Shown here: piece after piece, positions 1 to 3,551 of the stretch
Position numbering within the stretch: the stretch's first letter is position 1
Layout: each line of letters starts with the position of its first letter
Source: a virus
Taxonomy: Duplodnaviria; Heunggongvirae; Uroviricota; Caudoviricetes
Strand: one strand, 5' to 3'
Virus record (IMG/VR): IMGVR_UViG_2713896779_000018
Length of the DNA stretch: 4,017 bases
The notes under the pieces: model-generated
Seen by the model: only the letters and a program-made list of their open reading frames with translations
Told to the model about the DNA's origin: nothing
Databases searched by the model: none
Program-made: the position numbers and the translations under genes

Positions 1-467
1 CACCAGCACAGTTCCGGCATTGTCACAACGTGACTGTCATCAAAACCGAGATCCCGACGCACGACAGACAACACCCAGCGGGCACAGTTATCCGTTGCCA
101 TTGACTCCAGCCGTTCCGTGAACTGATCACGCAGCTGGTTATCGCAGTGCCAGCACAGACGGATTGCGCCCGGCGCGTGTCGCATTGTGGTCATGTTCTC
201 GCTGTGCCAGTCGGAATGAGGCCACTGACAGCCCTTTTCACGAAGTAACCAGCTTTCAAGGCATTCCACGCCACCAGCACGACGGATCACTGCCTCATTG
301 CGGAACACGGCCCGAACGACAGGATCATCCGCCAGCGGTTGTGATGCCGCCGGAACGGCACCACTGGCGAAAGATGAATAACGTTCCGGCTCAGGCTCCA
401 GCAGGACACGCCCCTGCATAAACAGGGGCATCAGCTCTGAACCTGGCCTGAACAACACGATCCCCAT
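1..467 (-). CDS. hypothetical phage protein, 3'-truncated by window start (Cys/His-containing; function unknown)
   Basis: Hand translation of the minus strand from ATG at 467..465 is open to position 1 (>150 codons): MGIVLFRPGSELMPLFMQGRV...CQWPHSDWHSENMTTMRHAPGAIRLCWHCDNQLRDQF...SHVVTMPELCW. Not in the ORF track, presumably because no stop lies in the window. Alternative starts: TTG 503..501 (GAGG about 7 nt upstream, overlapping the upstream TGA), ATG 431..429, ATG 419..417. It sits downstream of the RusA/KilA-N genes, where lambdoid phages often carry the late antiterminator Q, but I do not recognise the sequence as any Q family. Confidence 0.5.
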   Translation of the reverse strand, partial: MGIVLFRPGSELMPLFMQGRVLLEPEPERYSSFASGAVPAASQPLADDPVVRAVFRNEAVIRRAGGVECLESWLLREKGCQWPHSDWHSENMTTMRHAPGAIRLCWHCDNQLRDQFTERLESMATDNCARWVLSVVRRDLGFDDSHVVTMPELCW

Positions 468-512
468 ACGTGGGGCAATTTCAGGGGTCAGTAGTGCTCT
501 CAACGTAGAACC

Positions 513-1028
513 TCACAGCACAATCTGTTTCAGTTTCTGTACCGCTTTCCCCATATCCGCCATAGCATCAACAAACTCATCAAATTTACGACTTGCCATT
601 CCATACGCCTGGAGGATTTCCAGTCTCAGAGGATCCAGTTGCTTTTTAATTTCCGCACGATCATTAAATTTCTTCTCTGCTTCTTCCGCAGCCCTGATCA
701 GCTCCTCAGCATGCCTGCGTAATTCATCCGGAGTAACGGTCTTTTTAATCACAACGGGTTCCTCTGTTTTTACTGGTATTTCACTATTTACTGCCTGATG
801 TCCAAATTTAGGATGATGTAACGTTGTAGTTCTTCCATCATTCGCAACGACCAGAAGTCCACTGTCGCGGATAATGCCAATGAGTATCTCCTTATCCCTT
901 TTATTCAGCAGACTGTACGCCTGCACTTTCTGTGATATCTGGGTCAGTGTTGCGCCTTCCGGCATTCGTTCAACAAAACGTTTAACCCTGGATAAAACTG
1001 GCTGCAGATGGGGTGGTGTAATTCTCAT
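513..1028 (-). CDS. hypothetical phage protein (171 aa; possible winged-helix N-terminus, charged helical C-terminus)
   Basis: Complete ORF from the track, ATG at 1028..1026, TGA at 515..513. A GGGAGG Shine-Dalgarno lies 8 nt upstream of the ATG. The sequence is visibly more AT-rich than its neighbours. C-terminal part is rich in E/K/R/A (AEELIRAAEEAEKKFNDRAEIKKQLDPLRLEIL). No family recognised with confidence. Confidence 0.7.
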   Translation of the reverse strand: MRITPPHLQPVLSRVKRFVERMPEGATLTQISQKVQAYSLLNKRDKEILIGIIRDSGLLVVANDGRTTTLHHPKFGHQAVNSEIPVKTEEPVVIKKTVTPDELRRHAEELIRAAEEAEKKFNDRAEIKKQLDPLRLEILQAYGMASRKFDEFVDAMADMGKAVQKLKQIVL

Positions 1029-1036
1029 GCTCCACG

Positions 1037-1042
1037 CCTCCC
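1037..1042 (-). promoter_or_regulatory. Shine-Dalgarno (GGGAGG on minus strand) for the 513..1028 gene
   Basis: Plus-strand cctccc at 1037..1042 is GGGAGG on the minus strand, 8 nt upstream of ATG 1028..1026, within the 15-nt spacer after the KilA-N stop (TGA 1046..1044). Confidence 0.6.
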
Positions 1043-1043
1043 A

Positions 1044-1838
1044 TCAGTGAACGGTATCGAGCAGCTTTAACAGCTCAGGGAATCGGGATTCGAAGAAATG
1101 CGGCTGCGTCTCGCGCGGATTTGCAGGACTGGTGATGTTCTTGCCGAACATGCAGCCTTTCGCCGTCAGCGACCAGAATTTTTTGATGTTGTTAATCGCG
1201 GTACGGCTGTATCGTTCGCGTTGTTCAACGATCCCCAGCTTCGCCATCTGGTGATATGCCTGATTAGCCGTCAGGCGGATACCATATTGCTTCAGCAGTG
1301 CACTCAGCGACAGCGTGGGGCGACTTGAGCCATCAGGCGCGTCAGCAGGAGCATCAATGGCATAGCGCGGTGCCAGATTCGGTAAGCCAACAGCCTCCTG
1401 GAGTTTCTGACAGGCACCAAGCACAGATGAGTTAGACAGGTTTAACTCCCGACGCATAAAGTCCAGCAGAATCACACCAGCCTGCATCTTGTCAGCAGCC
1501 TGCCCGGATAATTTTTCCGGTGCGCTGGTTACCATGTCGAAAGTACGGATCACCTTCAGATGGAATGACGGGCTGATCCACATTGCATAGGCATACACCA
1601 GTTCCTTACAGACATACGTTCCCCGTTCATTTCCCCCATGAATCACACTCACCGGGTCAACACCCAAATTCTGGGTGTTGGTCAATTCATGAACAAGCTC
1701 AACAGTTTGTTGGCTGGAAAGAAACTTTCCTGGCTCCTTGGTTCTGGCATTTGCACCAGATGCTACTGCTGCGCGATGCAGATCGTTCAGGCTGTAACGC
1801 CCATAAGCATCACGACGAACTTCAATACCATCAATGAC
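1044..1838 (-). CDS. KilA-N domain protein (Roi/antirepressor-like DNA-binding protein), 5' end hidden in the N run
   Basis: The track lists 1044..1685 from a TTG, but hand translation shows the same frame stays open upstream to the N run at 1839: ...VIDGIEVRRDAYGRYSLNDLHRAAVASGANARTKEPGKFLSSQQTVELVHELTNTQNLGVDPVSVIHGGNERGTYVCKELVYAYAMWISPSFHLKVIRTFD... This pattern (small N-terminal beta segment, GxYxLNDLHxAA, a K/R-P-x-x-F-L stretch, then a hydrophobic C-terminal helix ending AMWISPxF) is typical of KilA-N domains. The frame has a stop at 1917..1919 and no start codon between the N run and that stop, so the true start must lie within 1839..1888. Confidence 0.8.
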   Translation of the reverse strand, partial: VIDGIEVRRDAYGRYSLNDLHRAAVASGANARTKEPGKFLSSQQTVELVHELTNTQNLGVDPVSVIHGGNERGTYVCKELVYAYAMWISPSFHLKVIRTFDMVTSAPEKLSGQAADKMQAGVILLDFMRRELNLSNSSVLGACQKLQEAVGLPNLAPRYAIDAPADAPDGSSRPTLSLSALLKQYGIRLTANQAYHQMAKLGIVEQRERYSRTAINNIKKFWSLTAKGCMFGKNITSPANPRETQPHFFESRFPELLKLLDTVH

Positions 1839-2211
1839 NNNNNNNNNNNNNNNNNNNNNNNNNNNNNNNNNNNNNNNNNNNNNNNNNNACCGGTCCCCAC
1901 TCCACCAGCATTCTTTTCACCTGGCTGTCGTCTTCCCACACACCCGCGTGTGTCAGGGCGTCAAACAGTGCCTTGTTATAGTTGTCCAGATCGCGGATCC
2001 TGTTATCAGGAGGAAACAACACGATCTCCACTGAAGCAGGTGCCGACGTTGGTTTTGGCAGACGACGTAACTGCTCAACTATTGCTGCACACGCCGCGCT
2101 CTGAAATTTTCGCCCCGCCGCGCTTATCAGGCTCTTACCAGCAAATGCCCCTTTGTTGGGGTGTCGCCAGTACGTGTTCACGCTGGGCGGGAAAGGCAGG
2201 ATCAGCTTCAT
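1831..2211 (-). CDS. rusA: crossover junction endodeoxyribonuclease RusA (Holliday junction resolvase), 3' portion masked by N
   Basis: ATG at 2211..2209. Translation MKLILPFPPSVNTYWRH...PPDNRIRDLDNYNKALFDALTHAGVWEDDSQVKRMLVEWGP aligns with E. coli RusA (ITLPWPPSNNRYYRH ... [31 protein letters not shown]), including the acidic catalytic residues (DLDN, DD). If the N run is exact length, the frame ends at TGA 1833..1831, giving about 126 aa (RusA is about 120 aa). Confidence 0.85.
   Translation of the reverse strand: MKLILPFPPSVNTYWRHPNKGAFAGKSLISAAGRKFQSAACAAIVEQLRRLPKPTSAPASVEIVLFPPDNRIRDLDNYNKALFDALTHAGVWEDDSQVKRMLVEWGPXXXXXXXXXXXXXXXXXXH
1839..1888. other. run of 50 N (masked or unresolved sequence)
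   Basis: Directly visible. Covers the RusA 3' end and the KilA-N start; reading frames on both sides are consistent with a 50-nt span. Confidence 0.95.
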
Positions 2212-2534
2212 ACTTTCAGGCCTCTCTCATGTAACCAGTGAGTTGCACGCAGCCTTGCGTTTTCCTCACCGGCAAGCAGTGAGCGGATAATCCCGACCGC
2301 TTCGCTGTCGTCGTCCTTCACTGCGGTATGAAGCGTGATCCCCCGGGCCACACCACGCTTTATCGTGATGACGCCTTTTTTCTCCAGTGCGCGAAGATGC
2401 TCCACCGCTGCATTCACTGAACGGTATCCCAGCATGGTTGCCACCTCCTGATTGGTTGGCGGGAAGCCACGTTCTTTCTGATAAGAAATCAGCATATCCA
2501 GCACCTGCTGCTGGCATTGAGTTAACGTCGTCAT
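2208..2534 (-). CDS. LexA N-terminal DNA-binding-domain protein (LexA-like winged HTH, no S24 peptidase domain), 108 aa
   Basis: ATG at 2534..2532, TGA at 2210..2208. LTQCQQQVLDMLISYQKERGFPPTNQEVATMLGYRSVNAAVEHLRALEKKGVITIKRGVARGITL is closely parallel to E. coli LexA residues ~4-68 ([65 protein letters not shown]). The tail VGIIRSLLAGEENARL resembles the LexA hinge and cleavage region (VGRVAAGEPLL), but the protein stops about 20 residues later, so there is no room for the Ser/Lys peptidase domain. ATGA overlaps with both neighbouring genes. Confidence 0.85.
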   Translation of the reverse strand: MTTLTQCQQQVLDMLISYQKERGFPPTNQEVATMLGYRSVNAAVEHLRALEKKGVITIKRGVARGITLHTAVKDDDSEAVGIIRSLLAGEENARLRATHWLHERGLKV

Positions 2535-3184
2535 GCCGCCATCTCCCTGACCAGTTTTTCTGCCTGCTGGCGAACCTGCGCCAGAAAGGCCTCACCACAT
2601 GCCTCAAGTTCATCGCGCCCGATGTAGCTGATTGCCGGTCCCTTCCAGGTCTTGTCGAAAACAGCAATAGCACCAGCGAAGAAAGCGCCTGTCGGTACCT
2701 GCTTCTCGTCTTTCGGGATAAACCAGGCAGGCAGTTCAAAACCAATACGCCCTCGAATAAAAGCAATATGGTCCGCATCTTCCGGCCACCACACTTCGCT
2801 GGTGGCAGCTTTGATCAGGAAAACATAGCGCCCCCCCTTATCACGCATGGCACTGGCATGTTTCATGATGTAACGCATGCCGGTGATGTATTGCCCCTCA
2901 TGCTGACTGGCGCGGCTGTATGGGGGATTACCAAAGGCAGCCCCTTTAAGCTCCGCAAGACGTTCTGACCAGTCATGCGCCAGCGCGTTGTCTTCCGCCG
3001 TGTAATACGCAGCACATTTGGCGTTATCACCGTCAGTGAACAGATCCAGAACAAACGGGCCAAACAGGGTGTTAATTCCCCAGAAAATGTTGTCCGGCGT
3101 GCGCCACTGATCGCCCACTTCCTTCAGTTCATGGGCTGGTTTGTTCCGCAGTTCCACCAGCGCCTGGCAATATTTATTACTCAT
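2531..3184 (-). CDS. phage-type DNA N6-adenine methyltransferase (Dam-like, orphan)
   Basis: ATG at 3184..3182 preceded by GTGGGGG; the track's longer version starts at GTG 3217. Stop TGA 2533..2531. Contains the N6-adenine methyltransferase catalytic motif NPPY (AAFGNPPYS) and an N-proximal DQWRTPDNIF (WxTP) motif characteristic of the phage Dam family. No restriction endonuclease partner is visible in the window. Confidence 0.9.
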   Translation of the reverse strand: MSNKYCQALVELRNKPAHELKEVGDQWRTPDNIFWGINTLFGPFVLDLFTDGDNAKCAAYYTAEDNALAHDWSERLAELKGAAFGNPPYSRASQHEGQYITGMRYIMKHASAMRDKGGRYVFLIKAATSEVWWPEDADHIAFIRGRIGFELPAWFIPKDEKQVPTGAFFAGAIAVFDKTWKGPAISYIGRDELEACGEAFLAQVRQQAEKLVREMAA

Positions 3185-3551
3185 TAAGCCCCCACGAAAT
3201 TCCCTGACAGATACCACTCTTCACCCGATGCAGCGCGCTTGCTGCTTTTCCGTAAGCACNNNNNNNNNNNNNNNNNNNNNNNNNNNNNNNNNNNNNNNNN
3301 NNNNNNNNNCGCACAGGTCTGGTTTCACGAACTGGTTGTGGTTCCGGCTCCTGCGCTCTCTCAGTCAGGCGCGGGAAATGTCTGCGTGTATCTCCTTCAC
3401 AACGGTGAGCCACACGCCCACTCTGACGTAACTTGCTTGCTGACTGCAGAACGCGCTGTCGTGAGTAACCTGCAAAAGCATCCGCAATGTCTCCGGAAGT
3501 ACAGCCCGGATGGGCTTCAATGAATTTCTGAACTTCATTCAAAAGACTCAT
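3177..3551 (-). CDS. hypothetical small phage protein (possible HTH), interrupted by N run
   Basis: ATG at 3551..3549 with AGGGGG Shine-Dalgarno 5 nt upstream; the sequence reads TGATCATG with the upstream gene's stop. N-terminus MSLLNEVQKFIEAHPGCTSGDIADAFAGYSRQRVLQSASKLRQSG. About 80 codons before the N run and 27 after (AYGKAASALHRVKSGICQGISWGLNE*), in the same frame if the run is exactly 50 nt. Stop TAA 3179..3177 overlaps the methyltransferase start by 8 nt. Could be one gene or two. Confidence 0.55.
   Translation of the reverse strand: MSLLNEVQKFIEAHPGCTSGDIADAFAGYSRQRVLQSASKLRQSGRVAHRCEGDTRRHFPRLTERAQEPEPQPVRETRPVXXXXXXXXXXXXXXXXXXAYGKAASALHRVKSGICQGISWGLNE
3260..3309. other. run of 50 N (masked or unresolved sequence)
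   Basis: Directly visible; lies inside the 3177..3551 ORF. Confidence 0.95.

Follow-up and report, generated by a model that had tools for sequence, protein, structure and literature searches.

The open frame at the edge of a caudoviral DNA stretch is very probably the first half of an ordinary lambdoid-prophage DUF968/YdfU gene

DUF968/YdfU proteins have been grouped with DUF1364/YbcO (PDB 3g27) in His-Me finger group 7, and RusA, Q and antirepressor genes have been reported as neighbours of the DUF968/YdfU genes (Jablonska et al. 2017, PMC5714182). YbcO, from the DLP12 prophage, is a small zinc-containing His-Me finger/treble-clef prophage protein that consists of a single 96-aa domain and is encoded beside rusA and Q. 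For Gram-positive DUF968 proteins, such as Orf20 of phiETA, an N-terminal domain like lambda Orf, fused to an HNH domain, has been proposed (Curtis et al. 2014, PMC4118853). YdfU of the Qin prophage of E. coli K-12 and the other enterobacterial PF06147 proteins are encoded just upstream of Q and near RusA, and they carry a C-terminal CxxC...HH...CxxxH...H motif. No published biochemical activity was found for any DUF968/YdfU member in the literature searched, and the term "nuclease", as applied to these proteins, is a prediction.

The locus compared here lies at the start of a stretch of viral DNA of 4,017 nt (Caudoviricetes; IMG/VR record IMGVR_UViG_2713896779_000018), the whole of which is referred to as the window. 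All long ORFs of the window are on the minus strand. The minus-strand translation of positions 1–515 reads '*GSTLRALLTPEIAPRMGIV...MPELCW' and is stop-free after its first codon, and the other two frames are full of stops; the first-pass annotation had described an open frame of more than 150 codons running off the window start, and this description is borne out. The leading '*' is the TGA at 515..513, the stop of the ORF 513..1028, and this TGA is the sole separator between that ORF and the window-edge ORF (to 512, minus), the two being in the same frame, as had also been pointed out and as the ORF listing and the translation agree. The strings CQWPHSDWH, LCWHCD, CARW and LCW, as well as the ATG at 467, were all found in the window sequence. 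The remainder of the 329-codon gene lies beyond the window start, and the full-length protein was taken from a 100%-identical record. The features of the locus are collected in Table 1.

Table 1. Features of the DUF968/YdfU locus and of its upstream neighbour, in window coordinates.
Feature	Position	Strand	Basis or remark
5' part (codons 1-167 plus 2 nt) of 329-codon DUF968/YdfU-family gene	1..503	minus	100% identity to WP_001299344.1
TTG start codon of DUF968 gene	501..503	minus	PGAP start and conserved NTG at the aligned position
Putative Shine-Dalgarno sequence GAGG, 7 nt upstream of TTG, overlapping the TGA of the upstream gene	511..514	minus	function as ribosome-binding site inferred
N-terminal β/α subdomain, codons 2-91, no Pfam family	231..500	minus	conserved from residue 1 down to 23% identity
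Predicted zinc-binding ββα (His-Me-finger-like or treble-clef) module, codons 92-151	51..230	minus	
Putative ligand codons C92, H100, C117, C120	228-230, 204-206, 153-155, 144-146	minus	
Predicted β-hairpin and helix, residues 104-124	132-194	minus	
Upstream gene, 171 codons, hypothetical protein of phrog_2539	513..1028	minus	optional module between KilA-N and DUF968 genes
TGA, genuine stop of upstream gene	513..515	minus	protein end coincides with family profile end

A prophage of E. coli O121 RM8352, and at least eight other complete genomes among the matches listed, share 100% identity with window positions 1–1100; in RM8352 the PGAP annotation gives WP_001299344.1, a 'DUF968 domain-containing protein' of 329 aa whose start corresponds to window position 503. 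The ORF had been taken as unrecognised, but it belongs to this annotated DUF968/YdfU gene: the full-length protein matches PF06147 (DUF968) at 270.8 bits against a cut-off of 27.8 (6.5e-81, aa 160-326, of which only aa 160-167 lie inside the window), and it is collinear end to end with phrog_96 'HNH endonuclease' (1-329 against 1-334 of 334, E=2.2e-176). The Pfam match of the full-length protein to HNHc_6 is just above its cut-off (27.6 versus 26.6), and neither NCBIfam nor PADLOC gave a match with the full-length protein. The 170 aa encoded in the window, when searched alone, hit no Pfam family because Pfam does not model residues 1-167; a PDB sequence search with the single sequence as query returned chance matches only. 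All 102 homologues align with the window-encoded protein from residue 1. An exhaustive HMMER search with the N-domain over 1.84 billion representatives yielded only 187 clusters, and the full-length relatives in it are about 320-370 aa long and match from residue 1. The database protein P0182 (2,334 aa, 21 'stretches') was set aside, being a repeat protein without relationship to the family that owes its high score to its repeats.

Positions 1..503 (minus) are therefore assigned, with high confidence, to the opening half of a DUF968/YdfU gene, an ordinary gene of lambdoid prophages that is translated independently. The gene is already known and very common in prophages, being called 'HNH endonuclease', 'ydfU' or 'YdfU family protein' in phage records, and its 5' end occurs in 1,872 out of 5,426 complete genomes of E. 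coli. YdfU and the enterobacterial PF06147 proteins belong to the same family, full-length collinear through phrog_96, and share with the window gene its position just upstream of Q and near RusA as well as the C-terminal motif given above; nothing essential differs, except that the window allele has TTG rather than ATG or GTG and an extra gene upstream. Within the family, the allele common in E. coli ST131 (P0042; compared with window 1-160) differs from the window protein through residues 1-115, but from the LCWHCDNQL helix on the two are nearly the same; this points to a recombination breakpoint inside the DUF968 gene, at the zinc-site helix. The record of Salmonella phage 118970_sal3 (L004, locus 1013-2003) divides the DUF968 gene into two CDSs, an 'HNH endonuclease' (1155-2003) and a 'DUF968' (1013-1147), which points either to a sequencing error or to a change close to the 3' end, whether frameshift or nonsense.

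The ORF had also been placed where lambdoid phages carry the late antiterminator. It does lie close to the Q position, and a 'VECLE' string, according to the first-pass annotation, is common to the ORF and the lambda phosphatase; a divergent Q protein or a lambda-type Ser/Thr phosphatase might be read from these two points. However, the gene directly after the DUF968 gene in the E. coli O121 record, outside the window, is a separate 'antiterminator Q family protein', so that the Q position itself is occupied by another gene. The ORF was said to match neither lambda Q nor the Q82 type, and its resemblance to the phosphatase was said not to extend to the phosphatase motifs; both statements hold, with no Pfam Q or Metallophos hit at E<=1 and no NCBIfam Q hit. 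Together with the confident DUF968 assignment, these results leave the Q and phosphatase readings with a negligible probability, and the downstream Q gene and the Pfam results already refute them.

The arrangement that had drawn attention is the shared frame of the two ORFs. The prior chance that two adjacent ORFs are in frame is 1 in 3, so the in-frame arrangement is statistically unremarkable. At the junction, the minus strand reads ...CAG ATT GTG CTG TGA GGT TCT ACG TTG AGA GCA CTA CTG..., and it had been left open whether the common frame reflects coincidence, programmed readthrough or a recent split of one gene, with the frames of the homologous ORFs proposed as a check. Of the 77 homologous loci that have an upstream ORF, 76 have it in a different frame, and in 54 the upstream ORF overlaps the DUF968 start by 4 nt (NTGA); the frame is shared only in L025, which also has a 9-nt gap. 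The Klebsiella phage Kp4866-6 is the sole other phage with a diverged copy of the gene pair (68% DNA identity), and its junction reads ...CTGACTGTT TAG GGGGTATT GTG CGG GCA..., with a TAG stop, an 8-nt gap and a different frame; its upstream protein stops at the residue that aligns with the end of the window's (...KAVQKLKDLTV versus ...KAVQKLKQIVL). Judged by these comparisons, the shared frame is a coincidence of a 9-nt spacer at a mosaic joint; of the three options coincidence stands, and readthrough and a split gene are refuted.

Programmed readthrough of the TGA would join the upstream protein of 171 aa and the DUF968 protein in one product of about 504 aa, across a single TGA and only three sense codons, and UGA is the leakiest stop codon in E. 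coli. Against it stand the single in-frame arrangement among the 77 loci and the out-of-frame Kp4866-6 pair with its TAG stop, the Rfam search of the region, which revealed no conserved RNA element, and the DUF968 gene's own putative Shine-Dalgarno sequence and conserved start. The inspected proteins longer than about 330 aa tell against it as well: the database proteins above 329 aa (P0001-P0003, P0014, P0016 and P0044) are singletons, either internally duplicated or fused to other upstream genes, and do not represent the readthrough product. Programmed readthrough is thus considered very improbable, and the comparative data give no support to low-level TGA readthrough in this one prophage either. 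The idea that a recent nonsense mutation split one long ancestral gene draws on the same frame and the very short spacer, yet the upstream protein ends at position 228 of the 229 of phrog_2539 and level with the end of its 68%-identical Klebsiella homologue, the DUF968 family starts at residue 1 in all full-length homologues, and about 96% of the E. coli genomes with the gene have a different upstream neighbour; a split gene is accordingly given hardly any probability at all.

Coincidental juxtaposition at a mosaic joint is in line with the distribution of the upstream gene. The local gene order in the E. coli O121 record is LexA-like, RusA, KilA-N, the hypothetical gene (513..1028), DUF968 and Q, and of the 1,872 E. 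coli genomes carrying the DUF968 5' end no more than 82 have the junction seen in the window; the upstream gene with this junction was found in 2 phage records. Homology breaks at window position 502 in about 1,790 genomes of E. coli and in 60-odd phages, and in cdtI, SfV, 118970_sal3 and Stx2a_1447 a KilA-N-type gene, called 'transcriptional regulator' in three of the four phage loci, directly adjoins the DUF968 gene with a 7-nt gap. Gene 513..1028 is therefore taken as an optional module inserted at a mosaic joint. No promoter-like or terminator-like sites were detected in a scan of window positions 1-1200, which is consistent with co-transcription and, by extension, with translational coupling at the junction.

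Several further observations were made on the genes upstream. The PGAP start of the hypothetical gene corresponds to window position 965 (150 aa; the region 965-1028, minus, being left out), but the 21 residues from ATG 1028 (MRITPPHLQPVLSRVKRFVER) are conserved in the homologue of Klebsiella phage Kp4866-6 (MRMTPPHLQPVLSRVKRFVEK), and for this reason the 171-aa form of the protein is probably the real one. In window 2208-3217 (minus) lies a LexA-family repressor-like gene of 108 aa with 4-nt overlaps on both sides, with a phage N6-adenine methyltransferase gene upstream and with RusA downstream, the same tight coupling as elsewhere in the operon. Two runs of exactly 50 N are present, at 1839-1888 and at 3260-3309; the former masks the junction of the RusA gene end and the KilA-N gene start, and the latter interrupts a yfdN/PerC-like gene. 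ORFs listed across either run are masking artefacts.

As for the start of translation, ATG 467 or ATG 431 had been suggested, which would make 468-512 an untranslated spacer. ATG is the stronger start codon and TTG a weak one, and the RefSeq records of cdtI (L002) and SfV (L003), locus 1014-1931, begin at the equivalent of ATG 431 and give a protein of 305 aa. Neither methionine is conserved, however: among the 102 homologues M13 (ATG 467) is replaced by Leu in 53 and M25 (ATG 431) by Leu in 43, whereas M1 is present in 100. In 78 other Enterobacterales loci, drawn from one-genome-per-species contigs at 47-99% identity and including Citrobacter, Kosakonia, Phytobacter, Enterobacter, Erwinia, Pantoea, Serratia, Yersinia and others, NTG followed by M-R-A-L-L or a near variant stands at the start position in 77, the sole exception being a locus where the match sets in at residue 2; at the first codon of the alignment, 39 loci have ATG, 34 have GTG and 5 have TTG. 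In place of the window's TTG, phages cdtI, SfV and Stx2a_1447 carry TGAGGTGACC-GTG and Salmonella phage 118970_sal3 carries TGAGGTGATC-GTG.

Codons 2-12, which an internal start would leave untranslated, are under purifying selection and are conserved down to 23% overall identity. Comparison of the E. coli allele with that of Salmonella shows, within the first 20 codons, seven synonymous changes and a single conservative one, and residues 2-18 are modelled by AlphaFold2 as β-strands with pLDDT 84-93. The equivalent of 503 is used by PGAP, AP012536 and NC_031940. It had been remarked that no strong ribosome-binding site precedes ATG 467; this is correct for ATG 467 itself, upstream of which no Shine-Dalgarno sequence was seen on the minus strand, but not for the gene, where GAGG precedes TTG 503. 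An internal start is thus judged unlikely, the comparative data place the translation start of the DUF968 gene at TTG 503, and the cdtI and SfV RefSeq annotations are probably 24 codons (72 nt) short. As its second codon the DUF968 gene nearly always has AGA or AGG (loci L006-L085), with Arg2 in 88 of the 102 homologues, and the overlapping NTGA stop may help to keep Arg2 fixed.

The N-terminal half of the protein, which makes up the window-encoded part, matches phrog_11007 over residues 2-133, and a Pfam search with 25 diverse N-domains found no family. The suggestion that the Cys/His residues might bind metal was partly right. C92 and C117 are invariant in all 102 homologues. Position 100 holds His in 93 of them and Cys in 6, and position 120 holds Cys in 66 and His in 36; structural zinc sites typically show such exchanges of Cys and His at fixed positions, so a CHCC site is predicted here, and C92, H100, C117 and C120 look like a conserved zinc site with these residues as putative ligands. 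C141, the cysteine of CARW, is not conserved, and C166 (LCW), present in 90 of the 102, lies in a later helix; the other histidines are variable (H96 in 50, H109 in 44 and H119 in 71 of 102).

The AlphaFold2 model has a pLDDT of 84.5 for the full-length protein and 91.1 for the N-domain alone, and in the latter strands at 104-109 and 112-117 are followed by a helix at 118-124. C92 and H100 are in the loop before the β-hairpin, and C117 and C120 are at the end of β2 and the start of the helix, so that in the model the ligand placement is a treble-clef or ββα arrangement. Position 109, at the end of β1, is the site of the catalytic His in a His-Me finger; the window allele does have H109, but His occurs there in less than half of the homologues and Tyr, Thr, Val, Glu and Phe are also found, and by this alignment the N-terminal module lacks a conserved catalytic His. 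When the N-domain was compared with the protein's own C-domain by hhalign, the expected Cys/His regions were aligned, though not significantly (E=0.4). A PDB profile search with the N-domain gave only chance coiled-coil matches (WTAP, E>0.1), and Foldseek found nothing significant for the full model against PDB or for the N-domain against BFVD. A lambda Orf-like N-domain was also considered and rejected, no sequence or fold likeness to lambda Orf (PDB 1PC6) having been found.

From the model, the N-terminal half is probably a degenerate second His-Me finger. There is about an even chance that it has kept the CHCC zinc site and lost the catalytic His, and that YdfU-type proteins are tandem, 'pseudo-dimeric' HNH nucleases in which the dead module positions the DNA. 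The only mildly new point of the analysis is that the N-terminal half looks like such a second, degenerate finger; this half is not modelled by Pfam and is not described in PMC5714182 or PMC4118853.

In the C-terminal module, outside the window, C256, C259, H267, H268, D283, C290, H294 and H298 each occur in 93% or more of the 102 sequences, and on this residue pattern the module is assigned a complete HNH-type site. A PDB profile search with the C-domain gave YbcO 3g27 (E=0.47) and the IscB HNH domain as best matches, with E values of about 0.5-1.5. YbcO shares His-Me group 7 with DUF968/YdfU (PMC5714182), but it is a single domain whereas the window gene product has two modules, the sequence similarity between them is not significant, and the window-encoded module, in contrast to YbcO, is without a conserved catalytic His. 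The C-terminal DUF968/HNH module and the two-module architecture are held in common with phiETA Orf20 (PMC4118853). For phage P1 Ref, a RecA-dependent HNH nuclease (PDB 3PLW; Pfam RecA_dep_nuc), both scores are below the family thresholds.

Taken as a whole, the gene would be expressed from a delayed-early (nin-like) operon in which RusA, KilA-N, the optional 171-codon gene, DUF968 and Q follow one another. Initiation at TTG 503 would use the GAGG that overlaps the TGA of the preceding gene; because of this overlap, DUF968 expression is probably coupled to upstream termination, and gene 513..1028 and the DUF968 gene may be linked by termination-reinitiation. The 329-aa product is predicted to have two modules. 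The C-terminal one would be a canonical zinc-containing His-Me finger (HNH, ββα-metal) nuclease domain, and the N-terminal one would comprise a small β/α subdomain followed by a CHCC zinc-binding ββα module resembling a His-Me finger without a conserved catalytic His, most likely serving to bind DNA or a partner, or forming a structural pseudo-dimer with the active domain. The protein may thus be a zinc-containing, metal-dependent DNA nuclease, whose likely role, as suggested by fold, motifs and gene neighbourhood, would be DNA cutting in phage replication or recombination.

Sequence comparison establishes that the gene is independent, that it starts at 503 and belongs to the DUF968/YdfU family, and that the pattern of zinc ligands is conserved. 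In itself the outcome matters little; it strikes a candidate recoding event or 'unknown metal-binding protein' off the list. The junction is a clean example of a lambdoid mosaic joint lying exactly at a start codon. The family is found in about a third of complete E. coli genomes, its N-terminal half, for which there is no domain model, is an annotation gap, and the comparative data settle the correct start for the DUF968/YdfU gene family.
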